Below, in pieces: positions 18,483 to 58,328 of a DNA stretch of 64,000 bases. The number at the start of each line of letters is the position of its first letter. The stretch's first letter is position 1. The notes under the pieces were generated by a model. That model was not told where the DNA came from. It made no database searches and saw only the letters and a list, made by a program, of their open reading frames with translations. Position numbers and translations under genes: made by a program. The stretch comes from Bacteroidota bacterium (GTDB taxonomy: Bacteria; Bacteroidota; Bacteroidia; Bacteroidales; FEN-979): positions 2,875-66,874 of the forward strand of contig JBAXLI010000015.1 of the NCBI GenBank assembly GCA_037134895.1. Reading direction: 5' to 3'.

Positions 18483-18531
18483 ATAAAGTGATTTTGGGTT
18501 CGGGAATGTAAAGTTAATCATTCCCGTCTAA

Positions 18532-20458: not shown

Positions 20459-21005
20459 ACACCTTTTTCATTAGCGATTCCTGAAGCAGGCTTACAGCCC
20501 TCCGGTATTGAGATTTCGACGTCGACTCCGAAATCCCCAACATCCCTGCGACATCCGAATGCCTGTATCCTTCGAGAAGGTGAAGTACGCATACCACTCT
20601 TGCACCTTCGGGAAGACGCAGGATAGCCTGGTGGATCTCATCCGCCGTGATATCATCAAAAGAAAACTCCGGATCCGCAGCATCCGCCATATCCTTATCC
20701 TTATCCTCAAACTCAACGAATACCGGTTTTTGTTTTCGTATATGGTTCAGGCATTGGTTGACAACAATCCTTCTCAGCCATGCACCCAGGGTACTCTGGA
20801 AGCGAAACGAGGGAAGTTCCCTGAACATCTTCACAAAAGCCTCCTGCAGAAGGTCTTCAGCTTCGGATTTGTTCGAAACCATTCGCAAACATAGGTTGTA
20901 CATGGTACGGGAATATTGCTTGTACAAACGATACTGGGCCACACGGTCGCCCCGGATACACGATCGTATAAGTTCCTGGTTGATATCCGGGATGTTTGAC
21001 TCCAA
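20448..21005 (-). CDS. ECF-type RNA polymerase sigma-70 family factor
   Basis: 185 aa. Region 2 is [41 protein letters not shown]. Region 4 is [40 protein letters not shown]. Confidence 0.9.
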
Positions 21006-22382: not shown

Positions 22383-23732
22383 TTACAGTGTAATAATAAA
22401 GCTTGTGCTTTCGGCGGATGACTCAAGGTGTATATATCCGTGGTGCAGCCTGAGGATCTGGCGTGAAAGGCTCAAACCAATGCCCGAACCATTGTCTTTC
22501 GTGGTAAAGAAGGGGATGAAAATCTTTTCCTGCACATCTTCAGGGATAAAAGGTCCGTTATTGCTGATCCTGATCACCGGACGGTTCTGACGGGAGAGGT
22601 CAACCCATACTTTGATCTTCCTGTTTTCAGATATGTCTTCCAGGGCCTCCATTGCATTGTTCAGTATATTAATGACAACCTGGGTGAGGAGTTTTTTGTC
22701 ACCGGGAATATTCGTGATCCTCGATTCAATTTTCAATTCATGCTGAATATTCAGTTTTTCCATCCTTTCCTTTGAAAGCAGCCAGATCTGGTCAAGCCAT
22801 TCTTTCACCGGGAAGGGGGCAAACTCAGGCTTCGGGATCCTCGTAAGTTTGCGGTAACTGTCGACGAAATTGACCAGCCCTTTGCCCCGTTCTTCAATGG
22901 TATCAAGGCCCTGGATTACGTTCTCGATGGTTTCTTCATCGACTGTTGAGGGATTGACAGGGTTTCCTTCCTCGAGAAAAAATCTTCTGAGAGTCCCGGT
23001 AAGCGAAACTATAGGCGCTATGCTGTTCATGATTTCATGGGTAAGCACTCTGATCAGTTTCTGCCAGGAATCGAGCTCTTTCTCATCCAGCTCATGCCTT
23101 ATGTCCTGCAGGGATATGAGTTTAGACACTTTCCCGCCGTAATGAATCTCCTTTGAACGGATTAGCAGGTTGATCTGGGAATCCTTGCTGAACTGCTTGA
23201 ACGAAGAGGCCTCACCGGGTTTGATTGCTGCAAGCAAGGTGAAAAGTTCCGGATTTCTCATTGGGATCAGGTGAAGCGGAGTGAAAGAAGGGATACCGGC
23301 ATAATCAAAAGCCTTGTCATTCATGATCTCCACTTCATTATCCTGGTTGATGGCCATCAACCCGGTTGCTGCATGCTGGATAAACGTCCTGAAATATTTC
23401 TCAAGGTATTCATTCTGCAGCTTGATCTGGTTGATCTGTTCGTTCAGCTCGGTAAGGCTTTTATAGAGATGACGCAGGGATTTCTGGCGGATCTGGGTGG
23501 GAAATTTCAGGGATGAATCTTCGTTGCGTATCGCTTCGAAAAAGAAGGCGATCTGACGGTTCGACTGGTTGAAAGTGTAAATTATGGAATAGGCTGACAC
23601 AGGCACAGGAAGCAAAAACATCAGGTACCAGGAATCCATATGATAAGCTGTTAAAAATCCTGCCAGGAATACTGCAATCAATATGACTGCAATATGTATC
23701 ATTGCCCTTAGGGTGACATGTTTATAGCCCAT
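22383..23732 (-). CDS. Sensor histidine kinase with two adjacent TM helices and no periplasmic domain (NtrB/AtoS-like cytoplasmic part)
   Basis: TM1 is AMIHIAVILIAVFLAGFLTAY, the loop is HMDSW and TM2 is YLMFLLPVPVSAYSIIYTF. A PAS-like region follows. The H-box is LIRVLTHEIMNSIAPI, and the HATPase boxes are NILNNAMEAL, NNGPFI and GSGIGLSLSRQI. It overlaps the regulator gene by 11 nt. Confidence 0.85.
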   Translation of the reverse strand: MGYKHVTLRAMIHIAVILIAVFLAGFLTAYHMDSWYLMFLLPVPVSAYSIIYTFNQSNRQIAFFFEAIRNEDSSLKFPTQIRQKSLRHLYKSLTELNEQINQIKLQNEYLEKYFRTFIQHAATGLMAINQDNEVEIMNDKAFDYAGIPSFTPLHLIPMRNPELFTLLAAIKPGEASSFKQFSKDSQINLLIRSKEIHYGGKVSKLISLQDIRHELDEKELDSWQKLIRVLTHEIMNSIAPIVSLTGTLRRFFLEEGNPVNPSTVDEETIENVIQGLDTIEERGKGLVNFVDSYRKLTRIPKPEFAPFPVKEWLDQIWLLSKERMEKLNIQHELKIESRITNIPGDKKLLTQVVINILNNAMEALEDISENRKIKVWVDLSRQNRPVIRISNNGPFIPEDVQEKIFIPFFTTKDNGSGIGLSLSRQILRLHHGYIHLESSAESTSFIITL

Positions 23733-25095
23733 ATTTTTTCATTTTTTTGTACAGGGTGGTACGTGAAATGCCCAGGTTTTTAGCAGCAATACTTAAACTC
23801 TGGCTGTTGTTTTTTAGTTCATTTTCAACCATGCGTTTTTCCATTTCTTCAAGGGTGAGGTTTTCTCTGCTCACCGATTGAGATGACTGGAATAGGTTCA
23901 GGTCTTGTGGGGAAATTTCCCTGCCTTCGCAGAGGATCACCGCTTTTTCCATGGTATGCTGCAGCTCCCTCACATTCCCCGGCCATTCATATTTCCTTAG
24001 CCGGTCTAAGGCTTTTTGTTGCAACCTTACGCAGGTCTTTTTGTATTTCAGAGCATATTTGCTGATGAAAAAATTGGCCAGGATCTCAATATCCTCAGGA
24101 CGTTTGCGTAATGGAGGAAGTTCGATCTGAATGGTATTTATCCTGTAAAGCAGATCCTGCCTGAACTGCTTGTCCTGCACCATCTGCAAGAGGTTTTTAT
24201 TTGTAGTACATATCAGCCTGATATTTACCGGCAGTTCCTTGTTTGAACCGACAGGGATTACCACCCTGTTCTGAAGCATATTCAGCAGTTTCGACTGGAG
24301 ATGGAGAGGCAGGTTGCTGATCTCATCAAGAAGCAATGTCCCTTTATCGGCAAGAGCGATTTTCCCGGTACGTTCTTCATATGCGTTGGTGAATGAACCT
24401 TTGGCGTGCCCAAACATCTCGCTTTCAAACAGGCTTTCGGCTACCGATCCCAGGTCAATGGCAACCAGGAGTTCATTATACCGTTCCGACTGCCGGTGGA
24501 TCTCTTTGGCAATAAGTTCTTTTCCTGTGCCGTTCTCACCCGTGATCAGGATGTTGGCATCGGTGCGGGCAACTTTTTTCACAAGGTCAAGGATCTGTTG
24601 CATGGCCGGAGAAACACCGATGATCATCCGCTCATCCCGGTTCATCTCGGTTTTGAGATCCTGTTCTCGTTTTATCAGGTTCCCCACAGCCTGGTTCGAT
24701 CTGCGCAGTTTTAAGGCAGCTTTAAGAGTGGCCAGGAGTTTTTCATTTTCCCAGGGTTTCAGAACAAAATCTGCAGCGCCTTCATGGGTGGCTTTGACTG
24801 CAGTTTCTATGTCGCCGTATGCTGTAAACATCACAACCTCAACATCAGGTTTTCTTTGTTTGATTTCCCTGAGCCAGTACATCCCTTCATTCCCCGAACT
24901 TTCGCCTGCCTTGAAGTTCATATCGAGCAATACTACGTCGATTTCCCTGCCCTCTATCTCATGAGGCAGGGTATTGGGGTTTGAGAGTGTGATCACCTCA
25001 AGGAAATCGAACTTCAGGAATAAGCGCAGGGCATTAAGCACGCTTTTATTATCATCCACAATCAGTAAGCGGCCTTCTTTAATTCTTTCATCCAT
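23722..25095 (-). CDS. Sigma54-dependent response regulator (NtrC family enhancer-binding protein)
   Basis: The REC domain is LLIVDDNKSVL...VVLLDMNF...KPW. The AAA+ domain has Walker A (ITGENGTGKE), an ESEMFGHAKGSFTNA loop (a GAFTGA-motif variant) and LLLDEI. The C-terminal Fis-type HTH is AAKNLGISRTTLYKKMKKYGL. Confidence 0.9.
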   Translation of the reverse strand: MDERIKEGRLLIVDDNKSVLNALRLFLKFDFLEVITLSNPNTLPHEIEGREIDVVLLDMNFKAGESSGNEGMYWLREIKQRKPDVEVVMFTAYGDIETAVKATHEGAADFVLKPWENEKLLATLKAALKLRRSNQAVGNLIKREQDLKTEMNRDERMIIGVSPAMQQILDLVKKVARTDANILITGENGTGKELIAKEIHRQSERYNELLVAIDLGSVAESLFESEMFGHAKGSFTNAYEERTGKIALADKGTLLLDEISNLPLHLQSKLLNMLQNRVVIPVGSNKELPVNIRLICTTNKNLLQMVQDKQFRQDLLYRINTIQIELPPLRKRPEDIEILANFFISKYALKYKKTCVRLQQKALDRLRKYEWPGNVRELQHTMEKAVILCEGREISPQDLNLFQSSQSVSRENLTLEEMEKRMVENELKNNSQSLSIAAKNLGISRTTLYKKMKKYGL

Positions 25096-25298
25096 AATCT
25101 GAAAAGTTTATACCCCCAGGCGGCATTCTCCTCCAACTGAACTAAGTACGATGGAAGGTTTTGGCGCAAAGAGAGTGTAATATATCTCGTAAAAAGTTTT
25201 TAAATGTACAGAAAATTAACACCAAACTGTTCAGTATGTTTACAAAAAATCACATGAAACATATTATAAATAGTTATAAATCAATCATATAAAATTTT

Positions 25299-25314
25299 TG
25301 GCATAAATTTTGCA
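25299..25314 (+). promoter_or_regulatory. Sigma54 (-24/-12) promoter: TGGCAT-AAATT-TTGCA
   Basis: The sequence tTGGCATaaattTTGCAa matches the TGGCAC-N5-TTGCW consensus with exact GG/GC spacing. It lies 32 nt upstream of the ABC ATPase ATG (25346), next to a divergent sigma54 activator gene. Confidence 0.65.
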
Positions 25315-25345
25315 ATAGTATGTATCAAAATTAAACAATATACCA

Positions 25346-26038
25346 ATGATAAAAACAGTAAATCTAACCAAACGGTTTATCACCGACGAGATCGAAACCA
25401 CTGCACTCAACAATGTGAGCATGGAGGTTAAAAAAGGCGAATTCATTGCCATTATGGGTCCTTCGGGTTGCGGCAAATCAACTTTGCTTAACATCCTTGG
25501 AATGCTTGATAATCCAAGTGACGGCAATTACATCTTCAACGATGTTGATGTTTCAAAATACAAGGAAGGGAAGCGAACCCAATACCGCAAGGGAAACATT
25601 CAATTCGTGTTTCAGAGCTTTAATCTCATCGACGAACTGAACGTTTATGAAAACGTCGAGCTTCCCCTGCTGTATCTGAAGAAAACAACAGCCGAGCGCA
25701 AACAGATGGTAACCGATATCCTTGACCGGATGAAAATCGGTCATCGCAAAAAGCATTTTCCGCAGCAACTGTCGGGTGGACAGCAGCAGCGTGTTGCAAT
25801 TGCCCGTGCAGTGGTACCTGGCCCTCAGTTGATCCTTGCCGATGAACCAACCGGTAATCTCGACTCGAAAAACGGTATAGAGGTAATGAATCTCTTATCT
25901 GAACTGAATAAGCAGGGAACCACCATTGTGATGGTGACCCATTCGCAAAGGGATGCAGCATTTGCTCACAGAATTGTCAATTTGTTTGACGGACAGATCG
26001 TAAGTGAGGAAGTCGCCCATAGCCAGCAAGCCGTATAA
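25346..26038 (+). CDS. ABC transporter ATP-binding protein (MacB/LolD-type NBD)
   Basis: Walker A is GPSGCGKST, the signature is LSGGQQQRVAIARA, Walker B is LILADEPTGNLD and the H-loop is VTHS. 230 aa. Confidence 0.95.
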   Translation: MIKTVNLTKRFITDEIETTALNNVSMEVKKGEFIAIMGPSGCGKSTLLNILGMLDNPSDGNYIFNDVDVSKYKEGKRTQYRKGNIQFVFQSFNLIDELNVYENVELPLLYLKKTTAERKQMVTDILDRMKIGHRKKHFPQQLSGGQQQRVAIARAVVPGPQLILADEPTGNLDSKNGIEVMNLLSELNKQGTTIVMVTHSQRDAAFAHRIVNLFDGQIVSEEVAHSQQAV

Positions 26039-26039
26039 A

Positions 26040-27389
26040 ATGAAATGCCAAACGAACATACTGCTCCTGTTTTTGCTTGCATTCTCCTGCCAGGGAATTT
26101 TATTTGCCCAGAAGTCCTGGAACCTCGATCAATGCATAAACTATGCCTGGGAAAACAATTTCTCTGTTCACAACCAGGAGCTGGGTGTTAAAATCAAGAA
26201 GACCGATTACAGGCAGGCCAGGAATGATTTATTGCCCGACCTCGGTTTTTCAACTTCATACACCCAGAACTATGGACGCAGTATCGATCCGACTACAAAT
26301 TCATACATCGATGTACAGTTCTTTAACAATGGTTATGGGCTGGCGGCTTCAGTTGACCTCTTCAACGGGTTTATGAAGGTCAATACGATCAATATGCAGC
26401 GCTTGAATTATGAAGCGGAGAAGAACAGGCTTCAGCAAGTCAGGAACGAGGTTGCATTTACAGTGATTAACAGTTATTTCAACGTTTTGCTTCAGCAGGG
26501 GCTTTCGTCAATTGCAATGGAGAATTTCAAACTCTCACGCACCCAATTGGATTTTACTACTGAATACGTCAGGCTTGGTCGTAAACCGGGTACCGATTTG
26601 CTCGAAACAGAAGCCAACCTGGCCTCCGACAGTTTCCTGCTGGTTCAGTCTTATAACCTGCTTGAACAGGCAAGCCTGGGGCTGAAATACCAGATGAATT
26701 TTCCGGTTGCCGACAGCCTTGTCATTGATACTGTTGTGATGTCAATCTTCGCAGGTTCAATCGATACGCTTTCGATGGACGAGTTATACAGGGTTGCAGC
26801 TGTTGCACTGCCTGATATAGTATATGCAAAGAATAACATGCTGGCTGCAAAAAAAGCGGTACAGGTAAGCCAGGGCTCATTTTCACCCAGGCTTGGATTT
26901 TATGCCGGATGGAATTCGCAGTATATGCAAACAAGCCGAGACTCCCTGAACAGGATCATTCCTTATGGCGACCAGATGAAAAACAACTCAAGCGAATACC
27001 TGAGTCTTGATCTCCAGATACCATTGTTTTCGAGATTTTCTAAATACACTTCCCTGAGTAAATCCAAACTGAGATACCAGCAAGCCAGGATACAGTATGA
27101 TGACATCTCATATAAACTCATGATGGGCGTCGAAAAATCGCTTACCGAATGGAGAGCTTCAAGGGCGGAATATGAATCTTCACTCAGCCAGCTTGCAAAG
27201 AACCTTAAAGCATATCAGGCTGCTGAAAAGAAACTGGATAAAGGCCTGATCAATATCATAGAATTCGATATCCAGAAAAATAAATGGATCAGGGCAAAAG
27301 CCGAAGTTTTAAGAACCGGCTTGCAGGTATTGTTAAAGGAACGATATATCAGGTTCCTGATGACCGGATCACTGTTATCGGGGAAATAA
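26040..27389 (+). CDS. TolC-family outer-membrane efflux protein
   Basis: The start is at ATG 26040 (MKCQTNILLLFLLAFSCQGILFAQ), 1 nt after the ATPase stop. It has a two-fold repeated coiled-coil/beta architecture with typical OEP motifs (LDQCINYAWENNFSV, ARNDLLPDL, LDKGLINIIEF). Confidence 0.85.
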   Translation: MKCQTNILLLFLLAFSCQGILFAQKSWNLDQCINYAWENNFSVHNQELGVKIKKTDYRQARNDLLPDLGFSTSYTQNYGRSIDPTTNSYIDVQFFNNGYGLAASVDLFNGFMKVNTINMQRLNYEAEKNRLQQVRNEVAFTVINSYFNVLLQQGLSSIAMENFKLSRTQLDFTTEYVRLGRKPGTDLLETEANLASDSFLLVQSYNLLEQASLGLKYQMNFPVADSLVIDTVVMSIFAGSIDTLSMDELYRVAAVALPDIVYAKNNMLAAKKAVQVSQGSFSPRLGFYAGWNSQYMQTSRDSLNRIIPYGDQMKNNSSEYLSLDLQIPLFSRFSKYTSLSKSKLRYQQARIQYDDISYKLMMGVEKSLTEWRASRAEYESSLSQLAKNLKAYQAAEKKLDKGLINIIEFDIQKNKWIRAKAEVLRTGLQVLLKERYIRFLMTGSLLSGK

Positions 27390-27390
27390 A

Positions 27391-27432
27391 CGTAAATCGG
27401 GCTTCGTAAATCGTGAATCGTAAATCGTAAAT
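27391..27432. repeat. Tandem heptamer array (CGTAAAT/CGTGAAT, 6 units) inside the operon spacer
   Basis: cgtaaat cgggctt cgtaaat cgtgaat cgtaaat cgtaaat. It fills most of the 51-nt gap between the TolC-like and HlyD-like genes. Confidence 0.8.
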
Positions 27433-27440
27433 AACACAGT

Positions 27441-28715
27441 ATGGTAGCTAATGACACAACCGGGATGGATAAGGTAATCGTGGAAAAACGGTGGATTAAA
27501 AAAAAATACTGGAAATACATCATTGGCGGAGGTTTGCTCCTGGCGGTCGTTCTCTTTTTTCTTTTAAGGGATTGGACCAGCACGGTAAGGGTTGAAAGGG
27601 AGAGAATCAGTATTGCTCCTGTGATCAAGGGGATTTTTAATGATTATATCACCAATGACGGGATAGCCGCTCCCATCTCCACCGTATACCTGGATGCTTA
27701 CGAGGGCGGAAAAGTAGAAGAGATCCTGCTCGAAGAAGGAACCATGCTGAAAAAGGGAGACGTTATTATCCGGCTGATGAATAACGATATCAACCTGAAC
27801 ATCCTTAATAGCGAAGCCCAGCTGGCCGAGAAATCGAATTTCCTTAGGGAAGTCAGGATACGCATGGAACAGGAAAAACATTCCCTCGAAAGGGAAGTGC
27901 TTAATGCCCGTTTTGACCTTATTGCCAAAAAAAGGACCTATGAACAGAATAAAGAGCTTTATAAAGACCAGCTGATTTCCCGGGATGAATACCTTCGTTC
28001 GGAAGAAGCCTATCAGCTGGCCGATAAAACAAAAGAGCTGGTTTATCTCAGGCAAAGGCAGGATTCTTCCTTCCGGTCCCTTCAGATTGAGCAGATCAGC
28101 GACAACCTGAAGAACATGCAGCTGAACCTGGCTCTTGTAAAACAACAGCAGGATTACCTGAATGTAAAATCCCCGGTCGATGGACAGCTTGGCAGCCTTA
28201 TGGTAGAAATCGGGCAGTCGATCCCTCGTGGTTTCCGAATCGGGCAGATCAACATCCTCACTTCCTATAAAATTGAGGCGGATGTGGATGAACATTATAT
28301 CGACAGGATAAGAACAGGACTAAGCGCCTATATTGAAAGACCGAATGACACCCTGCCTCTTGAAATTAAAAAAGTGTATCCCGAAGTCCGGAACGGCAGG
28401 TTTAAAATAGACCTTGTGTTTACAGGAAAACTTCCTGAGAACATCAGGATAGGACAGTCCTATTTTATTAAGATCAAGCTCGGACAGGCTGTCGAAGCTA
28501 TACAGATTCCCCAGGGCGGATTTTATCAGACTACCGGTGGACAATGGATTTTTGTTGTTGATAAAAGTGGTCTGTTCGCTGTTAAAAGGAACATCAAGAT
28601 CGGAAGAAAAAATCCGCAGTATTATGAAATTCTCGACGGGCTTGCTCCCGGAGAAGAGGTCATTGTTTCGGATTACACGATTTTCGGAAACAATGATAAG
28701 GTTGAATTAAAGTAA
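27441..28715 (+). CDS. HlyD-family periplasmic adaptor (membrane fusion protein)
   Basis: N-terminal TM anchor (YIIGGGLLLAVVLFFLL), a lipoyl-like segment (GGKVEEILLEEGTMLKKGDVIIRL), a long coiled-coil hairpin and a beta-barrel C-terminus (SPVDGQLGSLMVEIGQSI). Confidence 0.85.
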   Translation: MVANDTTGMDKVIVEKRWIKKKYWKYIIGGGLLLAVVLFFLLRDWTSTVRVERERISIAPVIKGIFNDYITNDGIAAPISTVYLDAYEGGKVEEILLEEGTMLKKGDVIIRLMNNDINLNILNSEAQLAEKSNFLREVRIRMEQEKHSLEREVLNARFDLIAKKRTYEQNKELYKDQLISRDEYLRSEEAYQLADKTKELVYLRQRQDSSFRSLQIEQISDNLKNMQLNLALVKQQQDYLNVKSPVDGQLGSLMVEIGQSIPRGFRIGQINILTSYKIEADVDEHYIDRIRTGLSAYIERPNDTLPLEIKKVYPEVRNGRFKIDLVFTGKLPENIRIGQSYFIKIKLGQAVEAIQIPQGGFYQTTGGQWIFVVDKSGLFAVKRNIKIGRKNPQYYEILDGLAPGEEVIVSDYTIFGNNDKVELK

Positions 28716-28726
28716 ATCATGAAAAC

Positions 28727-31120
28727 ATGTTAAAGAACACCTTTAAAATAATATTCCGCAATATTTCCAGGCAGAAGGGCTTCACCTTTATAAATGTAGC
28801 CGGACTTGCAGTTGGCCTTGCAGCAGCTTTGCTGATCCTGATGTGGGTCATGGATGAATTGAGTTATGAAAACTTTAATGAGCATGCCGGTAATATCTAT
28901 ATGGTTCACCAGGACCAGTTCTATACAGGGGATCGTTATCGTGTACCTGTGACACCTCATCCCTGTGCCCCGGTCTGGAAGGAACGGATTCCTGGGATAA
29001 GGGAAACAACGCGGCTTGTCAGGCTTCCCAAGCTCCTGTTTCGCGTTGACGACAAGGTGTTCTTTGAAGACCACATCAAGGCAGCCGACCCGGGAATCTT
29101 AAAGATTTTTACATTTCCGTTGTTGTTAGGGGACGCAAACACGGCCTTGCTTGATCCACACTCAATAATTCTTACGGAAAAATTGGCAAGGAAATATTTT
29201 GGAGATAAAAATCCGGTCGGAAAGAACATAAGTCTCGAAAACAAGAATACATTTACGGTCAGCGCTGTGATGAAAGACATCCCGAAAAACTCTGTCTATT
29301 CTACCGCTGTTGAAAACGGAATTGGTATTGATGCGATTATTCCATACTCCTTTCTGAAGGAGATTGGAGTGTCAGATGACTCATGGGGCAATAACAGTAT
29401 TTTTACTTATGTATTACTTGATAATGGGGCCGATATAAAATCCGTTAATAAGAAACTAACCGACATTGTTGTTGAACATAGACCTGAGACCAGGACAAAA
29501 TTCTTCCTCTCACCATTATTGGATTTACGCCTTCACACTTCGTTCGGATTCCAGGTTGGCAAAGGGGCTATCGTTAACATTTACATATTTGTTTCCATTG
29601 CCATATTTATTCTTCTCATCGCCTGTATTAATTTTATAAATCTTGCCACTGCTAAAGCATCCTTAAGAGGGAAAGAGATAGGCATTAAAAAGGTTTCAGG
29701 GGCCAACCGGCTGAACATGATTGTCCAGTTCATGGTTGAATCACTGGTGATCGTAATGATTTCTTTATTTTTTGCACTGGTGCTGGTCGGCTTGTCTCTC
29801 GCGGTTTTTAATTCGATATCAGGGAAAAGCTTTACACTAACCGATATTTTCCAGGTAAAATTCATGGTAGGATTTATCATAACAGGCCTGGTAACCGGAA
29901 TCCTTGCCGGGATTTATCCTGCATTTTATTTATCCTCTCTGAAACCGGTCCTGGTGCTTAAAGGAGAAACGATATCCGGAAAAAGAAACAGCCTGTTAAG
30001 ACGAATCCTGGTAATCGTCCAGTTCTCTCTTTCGATATTTATTGCACTTGGTTCTATTTTCATGTACCTGCAATTAAAATTCATGCAAGGAAAGGAACTG
30101 GGATTTGATAAGGAAAACGTCATATGCATCAACATGCCCGACAACATGAAAACCAAATACTATTCACTGAAGAAAGAGTTGCTTCGGGAGTCTTCTGTAC
30201 TTGGTGTTACAGCTTCATCGCATAATCCTACAATGATCGGCAGTAATGGTGGTGGTGCATCATGGGCAGGAAAGGATCCGAAAAAGGAAGTACTGATAGG
30301 GCAGAACATCATCGATTACGATTACTTAAGTACCATGAAGATCAAACTGGTGTCGGGACGGGATTTTTCGCGCGATTTTCCCGGTGACATGGGTGATACC
30401 TTGGGTAATTTCCTGGTAAATGAAGAAGTCGCAAAACTGATGGGAGGAGGGGATGCGGTTGGTAAAAGTTTCAGGTTTATGGGACAGAAGGGAATTATTG
30501 TCGGGGTGATGAAAGATTTTCATTTCAGTGGAGCCCAGGAACCGATTCAACCCATGGCTTTTGCGGTTAGCGACAGCAAATCCTTTTCCAATGCGCTGAT
30601 AAGGTTGGCGCCGGGCAATCTCCCCGGCACCCTGGAGACCGTGGAGAAAATCTGGAAAAAAATTGTTCCTGATTATCCGCTCGAGTACAGTTTTCTTGAT
30701 AAAGATTATGAAAATCTTTACAGGACAGAGATGCGGATGAGCCTCTTGTTAAAGTATTTCACAATAGTTGCGTTAATTATTGCATGTCTCGGGCTCTACG
30801 GATTAAGTGCATATGCAGCCGGCAGGCGTACCCGCGAGATAGGTGTGCGTAAAGTGATGGGAGCAGGAGTGGTCTCGGTGATTTTCTCCCTGTCTAAGGA
30901 ATTTCTCCTGCTTGTGATCATTTCGATTGCACTGGCGTTTCCGCTTGGCTGGTATGCCGTAAATAAGATGCTGAATGAATTTGCATACCGCATAGACATA
31001 AACTGGCTGGTGTTTGGTGAGATCGGACTGGGTGCATTGATCGTTGCCCTGGCGACGGTAAGTTTCCAGGCATACAGGGCTGCTGCAATTAACCCGGCGG
31101 TGGCTTTGAAAACGGAATAA
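28727..31120 (+). CDS. MacB-like ABC permease, double FtsX/MacB_PCD architecture (paralog 1, 797 aa)
   Basis: The N-terminus is MLKNTFKIIFRNISRQKGFTFINVAGLAVGLAAALLILMWVMDELSYENF. There are two FtsX cytoplasmic-loop motifs, LRGKEIGIKKVSGANR and RRTREIGVRKVMGAG, each preceded by a large soluble (periplasmic) region. The C-terminus is INPAVALKTE. Confidence 0.9.
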   Translation: MLKNTFKIIFRNISRQKGFTFINVAGLAVGLAAALLILMWVMDELSYENFNEHAGNIYMVHQDQFYTGDRYRVPVTPHPCAPVWKERIPGIRETTRLVRLPKLLFRVDDKVFFEDHIKAADPGILKIFTFPLLLGDANTALLDPHSIILTEKLARKYFGDKNPVGKNISLENKNTFTVSAVMKDIPKNSVYSTAVENGIGIDAIIPYSFLKEIGVSDDSWGNNSIFTYVLLDNGADIKSVNKKLTDIVVEHRPETRTKFFLSPLLDLRLHTSFGFQVGKGAIVNIYIFVSIAIFILLIACINFINLATAKASLRGKEIGIKKVSGANRLNMIVQFMVESLVIVMISLFFALVLVGLSLAVFNSISGKSFTLTDIFQVKFMVGFIITGLVTGILAGIYPAFYLSSLKPVLVLKGETISGKRNSLLRRILVIVQFSLSIFIALGSIFMYLQLKFMQGKELGFDKENVICINMPDNMKTKYYSLKKELLRESSVLGVTASSHNPTMIGSNGGGASWAGKDPKKEVLIGQNIIDYDYLSTMKIKLVSGRDFSRDFPGDMGDTLGNFLVNEEVAKLMGGGDAVGKSFRFMGQKGIIVGVMKDFHFSGAQEPIQPMAFAVSDSKSFSNALIRLAPGNLPGTLETVEKIWKKIVPDYPLEYSFLDKDYENLYRTEMRMSLLLKYFTIVALIIACLGLYGLSAYAAGRRTREIGVRKVMGAGVVSVIFSLSKEFLLLVIISIALAFPLGWYAVNKMLNEFAYRIDINWLVFGEIGLGALIVALATVSFQAYRAAAINPAVALKTE

Positions 31121-31147
31121 CATCCGCCCACAAAACAAACGGAAATC

Positions 31148-33568: not shown

Positions 33569-33577
33569 AAACATCAT

Positions 33578-35971: not shown

Positions 35972-36036
35972 AAGGTCTGATGGTTTGAAATAACTAATGT
36001 GTACGTAAGATCCGGACTAATCCAACAAACTGTATT

Positions 36037-38385: not shown

Positions 38386-38419
38386 CGTTTTCCAAATTCA
38401 ATACAGGAAGTAAACCAAT

Positions 38420-40774: not shown

Positions 40775-40787
40775 ATAATACTTTATT

Positions 40788-42344: not shown

Positions 42345-42354
42345 TTATTGACCC

Positions 42355-44751
42355 ATGATCTGGCAACTGAAAGTACTGACCCGGAATTTCATCAATAAAC
42401 CTGTTTATTCCTTTATCACGTTTATGGGGTTCACGATTGGCGTGATGGCCAGCTTATTGATCTATTTGTGGGTTTACAACGAACTCAGTTACGAAAAATT
42501 CCATCCTGATCATGATAGGATATACAGGGTGCTCACCCTGGTAAGAGAGGGAGATGAAATTGTGAAATCGGCGGGTTGCTACCGTCCTTTGGCCAAAACC
42601 CTGAAGGCTTCGTTTCCACAGATCGAAAATGCCACATACCTTAGTTTTGATTCGGAAGATTCCCCTTTGTCGGTTGAAAAAGGAGGTGATAAAATTGAAG
42701 CCCGCGGACTGACTACCAACGATGATTTATTTGCTGTTTTCGGCGGATTTGCATTCATCGAAGGCACTCCTGAAAAGGCATTTTTGAACCCCTCAAATAT
42801 TGTGCTTTCTGAAGATGTTGCGAAAAAGCTTTTCGGGAATAAGCCAGCCCTTGGCAAAACGGTCATCAGTGATAAATATGACAAAGAGGTCTACACAGTA
42901 AGTGGTGTTGTGAGGATCCCCCGCCAAAGCCATATAGCCTTCGGGTTTATCCTTCCCGAAAGAAGCCGTCATTATGCAAGGTTTGCAAATGACTGGAGTG
43001 ACAAGGCTCATGTTCGCGTATATATTAAGCTAACAGAAAATGCAGTTATAGATGAGAAATTCCTCGGGGAGATCACCAATCATCTCAGCCGTGTTTCCCG
43101 GTTTCCCGATAAGCTTCTTTTTCAGCCTCTGACCGATATTCACCTTCATACCGATTACCCTACTTACTTCTATGACAAAAATATCAGCAGTTACAAATAT
43201 ATCGTGATATTTTCCTCCCTGGCATTCCTGATCATACTAATGGCGGCTCTTAATTTTTCAGTACTGTCGGTAGCAAGGTCTTCGGAGCGATCGACGGAAA
43301 TTGGTCTTAAAAAGGTCTGCGGAGCCGAACGCACAGAAATCACAATTCAGTTTATGGCAGAATCCATGCTGCAAACATTCGGTGCCACTGTACTTGCACT
43401 CTTCCTCATCTGGCTCATCCTTCCCTGGTTCAACGGATTTACCGGGCAGGATCTAAGCCTGCGTTTTTCATTCGGATTTCTTCTCACGTTGTTCATGTTA
43501 ACAATATTGGCAGGGGTTGTTGCAGGTATTTATCCATCCTTGTATCTTTCTTCCTTAAAACCTTTGAATATCTTCAGGGGAGGGAGCCAGACCGGATCCA
43601 AAGAGGGATTTACCCGTTTACTGGTCGTTTTCCAATTCGGCATAGCAGCCTTCTTCATCATAGCCGCAACAGTCTTTGTAAAACAGCTGAACTACATCAA
43701 TGGCAAGGACCTGGGGTTCGACAGGAATAACATAGTAGTTGTCCCCACAGGACTCTGGTATGAAAACAAAACTTTTAAAAATGAACTCCTCCGGAACCCG
43801 AACATCCTGAGTGTTTCAGCAACCACTTACGCTCCTGTTGACTTTGAATGGCAAAGTACATTTGCTGTGGAGCATGGTAACCGGATTGACAGCATAAGGG
43901 CTTCAATGTTTTGGGTGGATGAGGATTTTGCTAAAACATACCGGCTACAGGTAACCAAAGGACAGTTCCTGCAGATGGATTATGATGCTTTCTGGAAAAC
44001 CACGGAAAAGGATACCGCGAAAAAAGCACCTGGCAGCAGCGGCTTTTCTTTACCTGTCGTCATCAATGAAGCTGCCGAAAAAGCGCTGAGGTTTGAAAAC
44101 CCCATAGGGCAAAAAATAGGTGAGTACGTGATTGTTGGTGTAGTAAAGGACTTTAACTTTCGTCCCCTTCAGTATGCAATAGGGCCATTGATTATGACTA
44201 ATGACCCACAGAACATCATGACCATGAATATCAGGATTTCGGATAAAAATAAAGGGGAAACCCTTAAATTCATCCGCGATACATACAGGAAAAACAGGGA
44301 TTCCAGGAGCTTTTCATACAGCTATTTTGATGAGCTTATGTCACAGAAGTACCAGGATGAGATCCGTTTGAGAAACCTTACGCTGGTGTTTTCATTCCTT
44401 GCGATCATTATCTCGATGCTTGGAATACTTGGGATGGCAGTTTTTTCTTGTGAAAGGCGTACAAGGGAGATCGGCATCCGCAAGGTAAACGGGGCATCCG
44501 CAATCCAGATGGTATTCATGCTGAACAGGGATTTCCTCAAATGGGTTGCGATTGCCGTAATCATTGCCAGTCCGGTCGCATGGATTGTCCTTAACCGCTG
44601 GCTTGAAGGATTTGCCTACAGAACAGCCCTGAGCTGGTGGATCTTTGTTCTTGCAGCCATCTCCTCAATCGCCATAGCCATCACGGCGATCAGCTGGCAA
44701 ACCATCAGGGTAGCAACAGGAAATCCTGTCAATGCCTTGAGAAATGAATAA
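42355..44751 (+). CDS. MacB-like ABC permease, double FtsX (paralog 6, 798 aa)
   Basis: The N-terminus is ...KPVYSFITFMGFTIGVMASLLIYLWVYNELSYEKF. The motifs are ERSTEIGLKKVCGAER and RRTREIGIRKVNGAS. The C-terminus is GNPVNALRNE. Confidence 0.9.
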   Translation: MIWQLKVLTRNFINKPVYSFITFMGFTIGVMASLLIYLWVYNELSYEKFHPDHDRIYRVLTLVREGDEIVKSAGCYRPLAKTLKASFPQIENATYLSFDSEDSPLSVEKGGDKIEARGLTTNDDLFAVFGGFAFIEGTPEKAFLNPSNIVLSEDVAKKLFGNKPALGKTVISDKYDKEVYTVSGVVRIPRQSHIAFGFILPERSRHYARFANDWSDKAHVRVYIKLTENAVIDEKFLGEITNHLSRVSRFPDKLLFQPLTDIHLHTDYPTYFYDKNISSYKYIVIFSSLAFLIILMAALNFSVLSVARSSERSTEIGLKKVCGAERTEITIQFMAESMLQTFGATVLALFLIWLILPWFNGFTGQDLSLRFSFGFLLTLFMLTILAGVVAGIYPSLYLSSLKPLNIFRGGSQTGSKEGFTRLLVVFQFGIAAFFIIAATVFVKQLNYINGKDLGFDRNNIVVVPTGLWYENKTFKNELLRNPNILSVSATTYAPVDFEWQSTFAVEHGNRIDSIRASMFWVDEDFAKTYRLQVTKGQFLQMDYDAFWKTTEKDTAKKAPGSSGFSLPVVINEAAEKALRFENPIGQKIGEYVIVGVVKDFNFRPLQYAIGPLIMTNDPQNIMTMNIRISDKNKGETLKFIRDTYRKNRDSRSFSYSYFDELMSQKYQDEIRLRNLTLVFSFLAIIISMLGILGMAVFSCERRTREIGIRKVNGASAIQMVFMLNRDFLKWVAIAVIIASPVAWIVLNRWLEGFAYRTALSWWIFVLAAISSIAIAITAISWQTIRVATGNPVNALRNE

Positions 44752-44777
44752 ATCAGAACCTCTAACAATCTGAAATT

Positions 44778-47093
44778 ATGTTCAGGCACATTTTAAAGAT
44801 CACGTTCAGGAATTACAGCAAGAACTTGTTGTTTACCCTGATCATAGTATTCGGACTGGCCGTAAGCATGTCGACGATACTGGTTATTTCAAGGTATGTT
44901 ATACGGGAATACAGTACCGATAAATTCCATAAAGAGTATGATAACCTGTTTCTTCTGCTGAACATTGCCTCTGATGGCAACAGTTCAACGGTAAAAGAGG
45001 ATTGGGCCGAAAAACTCAAATCAGGCTATCCCGAGGTCAAAGAATATTGCCGCATCGACAGGATTGAACTCGATATGGTAAATCAGCAAGGACCAGTCAG
45101 GATGAATAAAGTCTTGTCAACAGATCCCTCATTTTTCAAATTGTTTTCCTTCCCTCTCGTAAAAGGGGATACATCGGGGCCACTGAAAGATATCCAATCA
45201 ATAATTCTCACCGAAAGCACCGCTAAAAAGTTTTTTGGAAAGGAGGATCCGATCGGTAAAACGATCAGAGTAAAAATGGAGAAAGAAGAAAGCATATTAA
45301 CTGTAACTGCCTTAGCCAAAGACCCGCCGGCCGAGTCGAGGATACAGTTTGAAGCCCTTGTTTCATTTGAAAACAAATCATTCCATTTCAGGATGATGTC
45401 TTTCGGTAACCCGAACAAACCAGGCGGTTACACAACGATCTTTATGTGTGATATATACCTGCTCCTCCACAGTAAAGCAAACATCCCTCTTATCGATAAT
45501 AAGCTGAAGAAAGAATCCTATACATCTTCGAAGGAACATGATTTTTTTTTCTACCTGAAACTTCAACCTTATTCAGATCTGTATTTTGACAAGTCGGGGA
45601 GCGACAGTTTCAAACATGGCGACAAGATGATGCTGTTTGTGTTTTTATCACTCGCGGTGCTTCTGATATTGCTGGCCTGTATAAATTACATAAACCTAAG
45701 CACGATCAAGGCATTTTCGAGGGCCAGGGAGATCGCCCTGAAAAAAGTTTCGGGTGCTTCACGCCCCATGCTTGTAAGGCAATTCCTGTTTGAATCGGTG
45801 GGATTATCATGCATTGCTTTCGCTCTTGCCCTTGCCTTTTCAGGCTACATGGCAAATGCATTTGGGAAAATGGTGAATACCGAGGTGGATGTTTCCTGGT
45901 TTTATCACTTTCCGCAGGGTTTATGGATCTTCATGATCACGGTGGTTCTCGGCCTTATTTCAGGATATTATCCGGCCATGTATTTGTCAAAATTCAAAAC
46001 TTCGGAATTATTCAAAAGGCAGAGATTCAGCGGGAAATTCAGCTTGTTCCTTCCGAAAAACCTCTTCATTTTTCAGTTCACTATTGCAATCGCACTCATC
46101 ATATCAGCAATTGTCATAAAAAACCAGCTGAGGTTTATCAATGACAAGGATCTTGGATTTGACAAGAACCAATTGTTGCATATCAGTCTTCCATCGGATA
46201 TCAAACCATTTGCATTGAAAGAGGAATTGCTGAAATACCCTGGCATTTCAGGGGTAACTTTATCTTATGGAATTCCCGGCAACCTGGCTGCAACAGATGG
46301 GACAAACTGGTTTATGTTCATCGATTCTTCATTTATTTCAAGCTTTGACATTAAGCTTATAGAGGGAAGGAACGTTGCACCCGGGGATAAGAATGTATGC
46401 CTGGTAAACGAGACTTTGGTAAAGGCAAATAAGTGGGAAAATTACCGGGGAAAACTTCTGGGCAACAATGAAGTGATAGGTGTTGTAAAAGATTTTCACA
46501 CCAGTTCCCTGTACGAAAAAATTGTACCTCTCGAAATGGATTTCAATACATCCTATCTCTCTGATATGACAATCAGGCTTGAAGGTAAGAGCGTTACAGG
46601 GACTATTAATCTCATCAAATCATCCTGGAAAAAAATGGCCCCATATTCTCCTATGGAGTATTTCTTTTATGACGATTGGTTCGACAAGCAATACAGGAAA
46701 GAAGAAGCCTTCGGATCGCTGATCTCGGTATTCACCCTGATCGCAATAATAATCTCCTGCCTGGGTTTGTTCGGCCTTCTGGCATACCTGATAGAGAGAA
46801 GATCAAAAGAAATTGGCATACGGAAGATCAACGGGGCAAAAATTATTGAGATTATGGTCATGCTCAATAAAGACTTTGCCAGGTGGGTTGGTATTTCCTT
46901 TATCCTGGCCACTCCCATTGCCTGGTTTGTAATGCATAAGTGGCTTGAGAATTTTGCTTACAAAACAAAGCTTGACTGGTGGTTCTTTGCATTTGCAGGC
47001 ATCATCGCCTTGCTGATCGCTTTATTCACCGTGAGCTGGAAAAGCTGGTTTGCTGCAAGCCGCAACCCTGCTGAAGTCATCAGGGAAGAGTAA
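44778..47093 (+). CDS. MacB-like ABC permease, double FtsX (paralog 7, 771 aa)
   Basis: The N-terminus is MFRHILKITFRNYSKNLLFTLIIVFGLAVS. The motifs are SRAREIALKKVSGASR and RRSKEIGIRKINGAK. The C-terminus is RNPAEVIREE. Confidence 0.9.
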   Translation: MFRHILKITFRNYSKNLLFTLIIVFGLAVSMSTILVISRYVIREYSTDKFHKEYDNLFLLLNIASDGNSSTVKEDWAEKLKSGYPEVKEYCRIDRIELDMVNQQGPVRMNKVLSTDPSFFKLFSFPLVKGDTSGPLKDIQSIILTESTAKKFFGKEDPIGKTIRVKMEKEESILTVTALAKDPPAESRIQFEALVSFENKSFHFRMMSFGNPNKPGGYTTIFMCDIYLLLHSKANIPLIDNKLKKESYTSSKEHDFFFYLKLQPYSDLYFDKSGSDSFKHGDKMMLFVFLSLAVLLILLACINYINLSTIKAFSRAREIALKKVSGASRPMLVRQFLFESVGLSCIAFALALAFSGYMANAFGKMVNTEVDVSWFYHFPQGLWIFMITVVLGLISGYYPAMYLSKFKTSELFKRQRFSGKFSLFLPKNLFIFQFTIAIALIISAIVIKNQLRFINDKDLGFDKNQLLHISLPSDIKPFALKEELLKYPGISGVTLSYGIPGNLAATDGTNWFMFIDSSFISSFDIKLIEGRNVAPGDKNVCLVNETLVKANKWENYRGKLLGNNEVIGVVKDFHTSSLYEKIVPLEMDFNTSYLSDMTIRLEGKSVTGTINLIKSSWKKMAPYSPMEYFFYDDWFDKQYRKEEAFGSLISVFTLIAIIISCLGLFGLLAYLIERRSKEIGIRKINGAKIIEIMVMLNKDFARWVGISFILATPIAWFVMHKWLENFAYKTKLDWWFFAFAGIIALLIALFTVSWKSWFAASRNPAEVIREE

Positions 47094-47138
47094 GATAATA
47101 ACATTAAAAACTGAAGGCTGAACATTCGGTTTCAAACT

Positions 47139-49475
47139 ATGATCCGGAATTTCTATACTACGGCGATAAGGAACCTGTTGCGCGACAAGATGGCAAATCT
47201 TGCCAACATCCTGGGCTTGTCGTTAGGGATGGCCACTTTTCTTGTAATCATCTTATGGGTTCACGACGAATTAAGCTATGACCGTTTTCATAAGGATTTC
47301 AGGCAGACCTATAAACTGGTCAACAATATGGGCAAGGGCTGGTTTGAGACCTCACCGTTTTTACTCACAGAACATCTTAAACAGGATTTCCCTGAGGTTG
47401 ATAAAACAACCAGGGATTTTTCAATGACGCGTTTGATCAGTTACAATGACAAGCACTTTCGTGAATCCTGCGGATTTGTTGACCCTGATTTTTTCAACAT
47501 TTTTTCTTTCCCGCTGGTTCGGGGGAGCACCGAACATATTTTCGATATCGAAAAATCTGTCGTTATAAGCGAGAATATGGCAAACAAACTTTTCGGGAAT
47601 GAAAGCCCGGTTGGGAAATACCTTGATGTCGCATTCAGGGGGAAATACCTTGTAAGCGGAATCATGAAAAACTTACCCGAAAATACAACATTTCAGTATG
47701 ACATTCTTTTTCCTTTGAAGGATATTCTAAAACAGAAAATCTTCAACGGCGACGATATTTGGGGATATGATGTCCAGTCCTATGTGAAACTTAAACATGG
47801 AACAGATGTCGATGCATTCAGGGCAAAAATGGCCGGTACATGCAATAAATATGATCCGCGCAAAGGTGATTTCACATGCATAAATGACATACAAAACATT
47901 GGAGAACTAAGGTTATACGCAAGGAACGGGACCCAGGGGATATTGTACGTAAAAATTTTTATACTCATTGCGATCTTCATTCTCGTGATCGCCTGCGTGA
48001 ATTTCATCAATTTCACAACAGCACGCTCCGGCATCCGCAATAAAGAAATCGGCATACACAAAGTCAACGGCGCCACAAGGTTTTCGCTGGTAAGAAAGTT
48101 GACCGGGGAAGCAGTTCTTATATCATTCCTTTCGATGTTCATAGCATTTTTGCTGGTCACCGCAATCCTTCCGGAAGTCAACACGATGATGGATAAAAAA
48201 TTGTCATTCGGATCGTTTTCCGGACTCTGGCTGGTATGTATTTTCGTCATTATCCCGCTGTTCACAGGTATCCTCTCAGGCATCTTCCCTTCCTTGATCC
48301 TTTCTTCACTGAACCCGGCCACAACGCTTTCATTAAAAGCACTACCTTCAAGTACTTCGGCATTTCTACGGAAATCACTCGTTGTTTTTCAATTCAGTAT
48401 CGCGATCATTATCATGATATGCTCATGGATAACTTACAGGCAACTCAACCTGATGCTTGACAAGGACCTTGGTTTTGATAAGGAAAATATCCTGGTCTTC
48501 AGCAACAACAGGTTACTTGGGAAAAATTATTATGCTTTCAGGACAGAACTTCTCAGGAACAGCAGGATCAGCCAGGTTACTTACGCAAGCAGTCTTCCCG
48601 TAAACATATCAAACAGCAATCCTGTGACAAAAAAAGGACAGTCGAAAGATGAAGGGATTTTCGTCAAGTATGCAAGAGTTGGAAATGATTATTTCAGTCT
48701 TTTCGGCATGAAGATCCTAGAAGGCCGTGATTTTAATGCAAATTTTAAGGGTGATTCGGCGAGTTGTATTGTCAATGAAGAATTCGTCAGGACCCTGGCG
48801 ATCAGTAACCCTGTTGGCTCTGAAATCGTCCTTTGGGGAGCAAATCTTAAGATCACAGGAGTTGTTAAGAATTTCAATGCCCAGTCCCTGCATTCTTCAA
48901 TTCTTCCTCTCTTGATTTTACCGGCAATGGATCCGTATACAAATTTCGTTTTTGTTAAAACTGCGGATAAGCCTGACCCGGAAACCATAAAGTTTATCCG
49001 CAAATGCTGGACCGGATTCTCAGGGGATTATCCGTTTGAATATACAATGCTCACCGACAGGTTCAGGCAGCAATACGGATTTGATGAGCGCCTGGTTAAT
49101 TTGTTACTGTATTTCACCCTTATATCGGTTTTTATTTCAATGCTGGGATTATACAGTTTATCAACTTTTATGATCAGGCAGCTCAGGAGGGAGCTTGCAA
49201 TACGAAAGGTTTTCGGAGCCCTGCCGGCAGGCAATGCCCGTTTGCTTGCCACCAGGATTGTAAGGCTGATCCTGTTATCGAACCTTATTGCATGGCCTCT
49301 TGCATGGTTGCTTGGTAATCGAATGCTTCAGACGTACTCTTTCAGGACAGAAATTTCACCCTGGATCTTTTTAATGTCCGGCATGTTGACTCTTTTATTG
49401 TCATTACTGATAATCGGGGGTCACACCCTGAAAGCTGCAAGGCAGAATCCTGCTGAAGTATTGAATAACCAGTAA
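47139..49475 (+). CDS. MacB-like ABC permease, double FtsX (paralog 8, 778 aa; divergent second FtsX loop)
   Basis: The N-terminus is MIRNFYTTAIRNLLRDKMANLANILGLSLG...ELSYDRF. The motifs are IRNKEIGIHKVNGATR and the divergent QLRRELAIRKVFGAL. The C-terminus is QNPAEVLNNQ. Confidence 0.85.
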   Translation: MIRNFYTTAIRNLLRDKMANLANILGLSLGMATFLVIILWVHDELSYDRFHKDFRQTYKLVNNMGKGWFETSPFLLTEHLKQDFPEVDKTTRDFSMTRLISYNDKHFRESCGFVDPDFFNIFSFPLVRGSTEHIFDIEKSVVISENMANKLFGNESPVGKYLDVAFRGKYLVSGIMKNLPENTTFQYDILFPLKDILKQKIFNGDDIWGYDVQSYVKLKHGTDVDAFRAKMAGTCNKYDPRKGDFTCINDIQNIGELRLYARNGTQGILYVKIFILIAIFILVIACVNFINFTTARSGIRNKEIGIHKVNGATRFSLVRKLTGEAVLISFLSMFIAFLLVTAILPEVNTMMDKKLSFGSFSGLWLVCIFVIIPLFTGILSGIFPSLILSSLNPATTLSLKALPSSTSAFLRKSLVVFQFSIAIIIMICSWITYRQLNLMLDKDLGFDKENILVFSNNRLLGKNYYAFRTELLRNSRISQVTYASSLPVNISNSNPVTKKGQSKDEGIFVKYARVGNDYFSLFGMKILEGRDFNANFKGDSASCIVNEEFVRTLAISNPVGSEIVLWGANLKITGVVKNFNAQSLHSSILPLLILPAMDPYTNFVFVKTADKPDPETIKFIRKCWTGFSGDYPFEYTMLTDRFRQQYGFDERLVNLLLYFTLISVFISMLGLYSLSTFMIRQLRRELAIRKVFGALPAGNARLLATRIVRLILLSNLIAWPLAWLLGNRMLQTYSFRTEISPWIFLMSGMLTLLLSLLIIGGHTLKAARQNPAEVLNNQ

Positions 49476-58184: not shown

Positions 58185-58328
58185 GGCAGGAATAGTTTTA
58201 TTAGAGTTCGCCCGCAGAATTCTAAAGCAAAGGGAAAAGCCGACAAATGCAACTATTAATGGAAGGCTTATTAGATTTGTCATTGGTTTATAATTTTCTG
58301 TTATTGTAAATATTGTTGATCTTATTTT

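Follow-up and report, generated by a model that had tools for sequence, protein, structure and literature searches.

The ATP-binding cassette (ABC) transporters of type VII are built from an ATPase and FtsX-type units of four transmembrane (TM) helices, and a periplasmic partner, often encoded next door, is typical of them (PMC12646458). In MacB, the ATPase is fused to a single four-helix unit and the protein is a homodimer (PMC5985334). In the latest partnered case, YbbAP-TesA of Escherichia coli, the ATPase is separate, and one chain forms the whole permease, a pseudo-dimer that has two periplasmic domains; the complex has the stoichiometry YbbA2:YbbP1:TesA1, its coupling helices follow TM2 and TM8, and the periplasmic partner is encoded beside the transporter (PDB 9GE6-9GE8; PMC12646458). 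Clusters with several ABC permeases have also been recorded in the Bacteroidota. Porphyromonas gingivalis PG0679-PG0685 comprises a TolC protein, an adaptor, a hypothetical protein, three permeases and one ATPase, and a role in heme efflux is the hypothesis of a review (PMC12094164). Genomic island 43 of Psychroflexus torquis is a highly expressed 42-kb cluster of unknown function with ten ADOP paralogs and other transporter genes (PMC3914696), and Dyadobacter genomes carry 28-33 ADOP copies (PMC11573002). Here we describe a locus of this kind at positions 22383-49475 of a 64-kb window from the metagenome-assembled genome (MAG) of a freshwater Bacteroidales that is uncultured. It is probably a sigma-54-dependent operon for a MacAB-TolC-like type VII export machine, in which eight alternative permeases would work on one ATPase, one adaptor and one outer-membrane duct. 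The window is the whole stretch of DNA that was analysed, and gene copy numbers count the window only.

The pump operon is about 24 kb long and consists of twelve co-directional genes on the + strand (25346-49475), as read from the open reading frame (ORF) map and translations. The intergenic gaps are 1, 51, 11, 27, 9, 65, 34, 13, 10, 26 and 45 nt, taking as the start of the TolC gene the ATG at 26040 that is used in four metagenome copies of the locus (L001-L004); the ORF itself opens with GTG at 26004. Three genes stand ahead of the permeases and encode an ABC ATPase of 230 aa, that is, the nucleotide-binding domain (NBD; 25346-26038), a TolC-family outer-membrane factor of 449 aa (26040-27389; OEP in two stretches, 134 bits) and a periplasmic adaptor, or membrane fusion protein, of 424 aa (27441-28715; HlyD_3 and HlyD_D23, with a TM segment at residues 24-42). 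The ATPase is of the MacB/LolD/FtsE type (ABC_tran, 123 bits; best NCBIfam matches DarD, the MacB N-terminal domain, LolD and FtsE), and its Walker A (GPSGCGKST), signature (LSGGQQQR) and Walker B (ILADEPT) motifs are all intact. The adaptor passes the cutoff of the NCBIfam model RND_mfp, and its best specific match, DarC, lies below cutoff. The permeases follow: P1 (797 aa, 28727-31120), P2 (806 aa, 31148-33568), P3 (797 aa, 33578-35971), P4 (782 aa, 36037-38385), P5 (784 aa, 38420-40774), P6 (798 aa, 42355-44751), P7 (771 aa, 44778-47093) and, last in the operon, P8 (778 aa, 47139-49475), all assigned with Pfam. The gene 3' of P8 (49595-50815) lies on the opposite strand.

A preliminary description of this DNA had reported the twelve tightly spaced genes and a single set of ATPase, adaptor and duct with eight permeases, and both points agree with our results: the gaps range from 1 to 65 nt, and when the six-frame ORFs of the window were all searched with profiles, the hits amounted to exactly eight permeases and a single NBD, adaptor and TolC protein each. 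What that description overlooked was the twelfth gene, between P5 and P6 (40788-42344, +), which encodes not a permease but a DUF4933 beta-propeller lipoprotein of 518 aa (X518; PF16287). Divergent from the transporter genes, on the - strand, are the genes for a sensor histidine kinase of 449 aa (22383-23732; HATPase_c at residues 344-449) and a sigma-54-dependent response regulator of 457 aa (23722-25095; Response_reg, Sigma54_activat with 213 bits, AAA_lid_14 and HTH_8, the last a Fis-type helix-turn-helix domain), which overlap each other by 11 nt.

Two FtsX stretches were found by Pfam in all eight permeases, and two MacB_PCD stretches in seven, P1 among them. The exception is P7, in which Pfam reported one MacB_PCD stretch and missed a shorter second periplasmic domain. 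The expected pair of FtsX domains per protein was recovered throughout. By hydropathy, six of the paralogs have eight hydrophobic segments in a 1+3+1+3 arrangement, while P2 and P7 have seven at equal threshold, and stretches of ~230 residues lie between segments 1 and 2 and between segments 5 and 6. The type VII superfamily is defined by the FtsX four-helix unit, in which a large extracytoplasmic domain separates helix 1 from helix 2, and each permease has this unit as two fused copies. The permeases align over their full length, and the three motifs that had been picked out by eye correspond to invariant alignment columns (P6 numbering): E43 and S45 in the N-terminal anchor, R312/E315/G323 and E705/R709/K710/G713 in the loops after TM2 and TM6, and N790/P791 in the C-terminal tail. 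In type VII transporters the position of this loop motif is that of the coupling helix that touches the ATPase (PMC12646458; PMC5985334). The motif, R-x-x-E-[IVL]-[GAS]-x-[RKH]-[KT]-x-x-G-[AS], is intact in 16 of 16 half-units; disrupted coupling loops, which had been proposed as a sign of decay, were sought and none was found. These predicted coupling loops and the MacB/LolD/FtsE-type ATPase are a second mark of the superfamily.

Structural comparison points the same way. An AlphaFold2 model of P6, built on the alignment of the eight paralogs (predicted local distance difference test score, pLDDT, 76), found in Foldseek searches of the PDB the fused permease of E. coli YbbAP (9ge6) as its best match, with a structural-alignment identity of 12-13%. 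Further matches were MacB, the pneumococcal MacB-like transporter, LolCDE, YtrEF, BceAB and HrtBA; the match probability was 1.00 for YbbP, MacB, LolC/E and BceB, and MacB structures matched each half of the permease strongly. The assignment to the MacB/FtsX class as a covalent double unit, first made from the letters of the sequence, is borne out by Pfam and by this model.

Each of the closest described systems differs from the locus in some respects. With YbbAP-TesA it shares a single-chain pseudo-dimer with two periplasmic domains and a separate ATPase. However, YbbP has ten helices, including two linkers, whereas the window permeases have eight segments and no linker pair; YbbAP has neither adaptor nor TolC and one permease per ATPase, whereas the window operon has eight. 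A TesA-like gene is not present in the operon, and the adjacent candidate for a partner is the DUF4933 gene. As in MacAB-TolC, a MacB/FtsX-type transporter, an N-terminally anchored adaptor and a TolC-family duct are encoded together, but the fused architecture of MacB is not found, since the ATPase is separate, the permease units are fused and there are eight alternatives. P. gingivalis PG0679-PG0685, compared by description, likewise has several permeases per ATPase, three against eight. Among family models, ADOP (NCBIfam TIGR03434) was the best-scoring NCBIfam model for the four permeases scanned (P1, P2, P5 and P8), at 213-290 bits, far below the cutoff of 622.3; the proteins resemble ADOP in their ~800 aa, two FtsX units, MacB-type periplasmic domains and membership of large paralogous families.

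Operons under sigma-54 control have a -24/-12 element before the first gene and activator sites ~80-150 bp further upstream, and by sequence both are present here. The element TGGCATAAATTTTGCA (25299-25314, +) lies 31 nt 5' of the NBD start codon and is the sole match to TGGCAYN5TTGCW in the 64-kb window. Tandem 17-bp TGT-N11-ACA palindromes with a 6-nt spacer, TGTACAGAAAATTAACA-CCAAAC-TGTTCAGTATGTTTACA (25205-25244, +), form a putative upstream activating sequence 94 bp upstream of the -24 element and are likewise the only such site in the window. The comparison set comprised 46 related loci, each with a full-length gene for a sigma-54 activator that runs divergently from the first of the transporter genes. 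The strict promoter pattern occurred in only 7 of 58 related intergenic regions, and because the -12 box of relatives more often reads TGGC or TTGA, the pattern was relaxed to TGGCAY-N5-TNG after these boxes had been read. In this form it was found at the same place in 40 of the 46 regions against 1.2 expected, and the TGT-N11-ACA pair in 30 against 0.8 expected. In the 24 loci with both, the distance from palindromes to -24 element was 91-96 bp in 21 and 103-104 bp, one helical turn more, in three. Such a geometry is what one would expect of an enhancer-binding protein at a sigma-54 promoter, and the divergently encoded activator would bind the tandem palindromes and open the -24/-12 promoter. 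Sigma-54 control of the operon, proposed earlier from gene content, is well supported by this conservation of sites and spacing. One variant was seen in L013, a Draconibacterium-labelled MAG (~7250-7700), where the activator-ATPase intergenic region is ~580 bp long and holds tandem ~45-bp repeats (..CTGACCTCAACCCCCGACCCCTGGTGGTGGTTTTATCCTTA..) and an assembly gap; it keeps the palindrome pair, and its -24 element reads CGGCAC.

Within the array itself, no terminator-like site was found on the + strand in the intergenic gaps, the terminator scan being at chance level; a scan for sigma-70-type internal promoters was also at chance level, and the Bacteroidetes TAnnTTTG -7 box was absent from the 150 nt upstream of every internal gene. 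As weak negative evidence, these scans are consistent with one long transcript. The kinase, whose best NCBIfam match is AtoS-like and below cutoff, has hydrophobic stretches only at residues ~10-28 and, weaker, ~35-53. The two lie ~5 residues apart, and the kinase lacks a periplasmic sensor domain.

The eight permeases are old copies, as had been surmised. Their pairwise identity is 25-35%, which indicates ancient duplication, with P5 the most divergent (25-27% to the others). Seven of the eight have orthologs of 68-94% identity in related MAG loci, compared with ~30% for paralogs within a genome, and the ratio of nonsynonymous to synonymous substitution rates (dN/dS) is 0.07-0.15 for the seven paralogs with unsaturated dS, a set that does not include P7; these low ratios point to purifying selection on the seven. 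P1, P2 and P3 have orthologs in L010 of 91, 90 and 86% identity (dN/dS 0.11, 0.11 and 0.12), P4 has orthologs of 90-92% in L007, L009 and L089 (dN/dS 0.12-0.15), and P5 has orthologs of 82-89% at variable array positions (dN/dS 0.08-0.14). P6 orthologs range from 59 to 85%, and those of P7 in L015, L016 and L089 from 68 to 71%. P8 is the rarest type, with one ortholog at 94%, the next at 55% and lower, and a dN/dS of 0.07. The copies are constrained individually and not decaying. The statement that their periplasmic segments are barely alignable was too strong, as the identity values given below make clear.

The layout is also far more common than the impression of rarity left by the preliminary description. 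The adaptor has exact copies in freshwater metagenomes and in MAGs that carry the label Bacteroidota or Bacteroidales. A survey anchored on the adaptor, with one genome per species and ORFs classified with profiles of the window proteins, yielded 80 loci from Prolixibacteraceae, Labilibaculum, Marinifilum, Sunxiuqinia, Puteibacter, Alistipes and Rikenellaceae, and also from Segatella copri and relatives, Flavivirga and Confluentibacter. Of these loci, 42 had full 10-kb flanks and form the basis of the following tallies: a sigma-54 activator gene was present in 40, a kinase gene in 36 and a TolC gene in 35, seven having no TolC within 10 kb. Permease ORFs numbered three or four, as many as a flank can hold, in 32 loci, and at least one NBD gene was counted in 40 (one in 31, two in nine). 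Complete arrays hold four permeases in L087 and L089, and one Prolixibacteraceae MAG holds at least 11 with two NBD genes, as assembled from two exactly overlapping loci. Across the Bacteroidota, the same regulator and pump genes are found with between one and at least 11 permeases. The expectation that permease number varies (four, eight, at least 11) while the pump genes stay was therefore right, and the expectation of a single ATPase as a rule of the class was not, given the nine loci with two NBD genes. A search with P1 through all of 1.84 billion representative proteins gave 21,058 clusters (50% identity) at E <= 1e-30; of the 150 best, nearly every one is a double permease of full length. 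In two loci, L091 (8537-8929) and L092, a small gene for a 23S_rRNA_IVP-domain protein, a four-helix bundle, was noticed between the adaptor and ATPase genes. Literature searches on the function or stoichiometry of such arrays found no experimental study, as the preliminary description had stated, and a search for sigma-54 with FtsX in Bacteroides found nothing.

Close relatives carry differing subsets and orders of common orthologous groups. With X for the DUF4933 gene, the window reads P1 P2 P3 P4 P5 X P6 P7 P8. L010 begins P1 P2 P3 P5 and L009 begins P4 P5 X P6, each continuing further; L089 reads P4 P5 X P6 P7, L008 P1 P2 X P6 P5, L015 P1 X P6 P7 P5 and L087 P1 Pnew X P6 P5, where Pnew is a permease of another type. 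Synonymous divergence is uneven along the operon. Between the window and L089, L007 and L009, identity at four-fold sites is 73-84% in P4 and 61-68% in P5, compared with 33-48% in the activator, ATPase, duct, adaptor, DUF4933, P6 and P7 genes of L089 and L007; in the core genes of L009 it reaches up to 58%, well under P4. Against L010, P1-P3 stand at 61-70% and the core genes at 41-58%. The likeliest reading of this pattern is that permease blocks were recently exchanged by recombination among lineages with core pump genes of much older divergence; the window array resembles the front of an L010-type array fused to the back of an L009-type one.

The DUF4933 protein has a lipoprotein-type signal sequence ending ..LIPLFSC. 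Its AlphaFold2 model (pLDDT 83) places a long helix (residues 32-64) between the lipoprotein signal and the beta-propeller, and this helix is predicted to tether the propeller. A sequence search of the PDB found no match; the fold search alone gave one, the best being 4raa, BF0058 of Bacteroides fragilis, a protein of unknown function, with ligand-binding propeller lipoproteins of Bacteroides lower among the matches. A literature search on DUF4933 found nothing. In all 15 loci in which a DUF4933 homologue is followed by a permease, that permease is a P6 ortholog and the DUF4933 gene stands directly 5' of it. P6 orthologs are recognisable at 59-63% identity even in the distant loci L091, L093 and L094, where the other permeases are ~30-37% identical to any window paralog. 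They have in common an insertion of ~20 aa in the second periplasmic domain (~residues 541-565, window 43975-44050; (Y/F)WK...DTG.K...), which is shorter in L087, is flanked by the strongly conserved stretches WVDEDFAKTY and KGQFLQMD, and is absent from the other seven paralogs. From this gene linkage we infer that DUF4933 probably acts as a periplasmic partner of the P6-type permease, comparable to TesA, EnvC and LolA, the partners of other type VII transporters, and the insertion could be its docking site. In a Bacteroidales MAG (L094, 8366-11524), two tandem DUF4933 genes precede a P6-type permease gene, and genes for a lipid A deacylase, a PMT_2 protein and a glycosyltransferase lie 3' of them.

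Taken as an export machine, the locus would work as follows. The kinase presumably phosphorylates the NtrC-type activator, which at the TGT-N11-ACA sites would open the -24/-12 promoter ahead of the ATPase gene, and all twelve genes would be co-expressed from a single transcript. Each permease, a covalent pseudo-dimer with helices in the order 1+3+1+3 and two Porter/Sabre-type periplasmic domains, would dock two copies of the ATPase through its two coupling loops, as in YbbA2-YbbP. The eight would then be alternative motors competing for one ATPase pool, and, by analogy with homologous structures, at least some of them would use the one hexameric adaptor and the one TolC-like duct. Mechanotransmission would expel compounds located in the membrane or periplasm, with antimicrobial peptides, amphiphiles or lipids as candidate substrates and outward transport as the presumed direction; the P6-type permease would be specifically paired with DUF4933 through direct contact in the periplasm. 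A further-reaching version, 'chassis plus cartridges', would have one sigma-54-controlled set of ATPase, adaptor and duct serve exchangeable permeases that are swapped by recombination into strain-specific repertoires, with P6 accompanied by DUF4933. We offer it tentatively and judge it unlikely to hold as a whole.

Several observations weigh against an export machine with eight permeases on one ATPase. A second NBD gene lies inside the array in 9 of the 42 related loci, and for this reason one ATPase per array is not universal. The periplasmic domains have a mean pairwise identity of 27% and the membrane blocks of 34-38%, a modest gap that does not clearly mark the former as the site of specificity. 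An rpoN gene was not found in the 64-kb window. Literature searches found no transcript, protein or phenotype data on the locus or its close homologues. Finally, ADOP-type permeases in other phyla are typically orphans without a nearby ATPase, in the NCBIfam description of TIGR03434. Unlike such orphans, the window permeases belong to an operon headed by an NBD gene, in a locus with an adaptor, a duct and a two-component system.

Among other explanations, the one that fares best divides the array by function. One or a few permeases, for instance the one adjacent to the adaptor, would form a tripartite pump with TolC, and the rest would be duct-independent mechanotransducers like LolCDE, FtsEX and YbbAP that draw on the same ATPase in order to extract, pass on or activate partners, either periplasmic proteins or lipoproteins, with P6 and DUF4933 as the clearest case. 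The strict adjacency of the two genes in all 15 loci, the unusual conservation of P6 and the insertion peculiar to the second domain of its orthologs speak for this division. So does the closest structure, YbbAP-TesA, which is duct-independent and has the gene for its periplasmic partner adjacent, and so do the loci without a TolC gene nearby, seven of the 42, and L091, L019 and L026. However, the window array offers no further candidate partner gene, its other eleven genes being pump parts, and the adaptor is kept with every array examined, although the survey was itself anchored on the adaptor. We regard this mixed arrangement as unlikely, but as a serious contender.

A module that resembles BceAB seems to us rather improbable. 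The permeases would remove envelope-active peptides and report their flux to the sensor-less kinase, which would raise expression of the operon through the sigma-54 activator; flux sensing of this sort is compatible both with the export machine and with an array of mixed function. It would account for a kinase without an extracytoplasmic domain and for two-component genes that almost always stand beside the pump genes (regulator in 40 and kinase in 36 of the 42 loci), and BceAB structures are among the matches of the P6 model. Some homologues are annotated as 'ABC-type antimicrobial peptide transport system permease', but these annotations are automatic and not experimental. The resemblance to BceS is limited to the sensor-less kinase, and the ~150-residue cytoplasmic region that precedes the catalytic core of the window kinase could instead sense a cytoplasmic signal. 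BceS-type kinases partner OmpR-type regulators and not sigma-54 activators, whereas the regulator here is of the NtrC/sigma-54 class. The permeases differ as well, BceB having 10 helices and one extracellular domain (PMC5985334) against eight segments and two periplasmic domains in the window proteins.

That the operon is a dedicated exporter of the organism's own ribosomal peptide or natural product, as DarBCD is for darobactin, we consider very improbable. DarBCD also combines a double-FtsX permease of ~777 aa, a separate ATPase and an adaptor, and DarB, DarD and DarC are the best specific NCBIfam matches after ADOP. Nevertheless, all three scores fall far under the family cutoffs (DarB 83-131 against 700, DarD 270 against 375 and DarC 202 against 450 bits). 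DarBCD has one permease and is accompanied by dar biosynthetic genes, whereas the window operon has eight permeases, and neither a dar context nor precursor-peptide, radical-SAM or other biosynthetic genes were found in its flanks; eight different permeases are also hard to square with one product. The weakest alternative, redundant or decaying duplicates of a selfishly expanding gene family, draws on the size of the family and its variable copy number among relatives but is scarcely credible beside eight intact frames with both coupling loops conserved and paralogs of 25-35% identity, and was rejected on the dN/dS values and the conservation of orthologs in other lineages. A role in anti-phage defence was also rejected: PADLOC gave no match for a permease, the DUF4933 protein or the 400-aa protein described next, and the ATPase had generic ABC matches only.

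The operon is flanked by genes for EF-G, an aldo-keto reductase, peptidases and an extracytoplasmic function (ECF) sigma factor. Immediately beyond the kinase gene (21172-22374, +) lies a gene for a 400-aa secreted protein with three internal repeats of ~125 residues (..AIDFINDRLS.S.I....D..G...I.AP...), for which neither Pfam nor PADLOC gave a match; we rejected it as a member of the system, as it was found only in the same-species contig L001 and not beside the locus in relatives. Two genes without a Pfam match (19820-20458 and 18532-19869, both -) come after the ECF sigma factor gene (20448-21005, -); L007 and L009 keep this trio, which may include an anti-sigma factor or form a partner set, upstream of the kinase gene. 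A gene for an M64 peptidase lies upstream of the operon (16986-18521), and the downstream region is rich in secreted proteases (56736-58283 and 60180-63170, both -), with a C10 peptidase carrying a type IX secretion tail, an S41 peptidase and an M16 PreP-like peptidase. No link between these protease genes and the operon was found. Inside the operon, the 51-nt spacer between the TolC and adaptor genes (27390-27440) is composed of short direct repeats of CGTAAATCG / CGTAAAT: ACGTAAATCGGGCTTCGTAAATCGTGAATCGTAAATCGTAAATAACACAGT.

The layout of this locus is known at the genome level and widespread in the Bacteroidota; the new details are the conserved enhancer-promoter geometry, the DUF4933-P6 pair and the signs of cartridge-like exchange of permease blocks. 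Double-FtsX permeases are abundant in the phylum, including the gut genera Segatella and Alistipes, and literature searches found no member of such arrays with a tested substrate. The locus is a clean experimental case, with one promoter that has a recognisable enhancer and a specific DUF4933-P6 pair, and if the ATPase is shared, its deletion should silence all eight permeases. Should the arrangement of one chassis and exchangeable cartridges prove correct, DUF4933 would be a new class of partner for type VII ABC transporters beside EnvC, LolA, MacA and TesA. If ATPase sharing and exchange do not hold, the locus is one more annotated multi-permease ABC operon; if they do, they would explain why the genes accumulate in arrays and show how the envelope defence repertoires of the phylum diversify.

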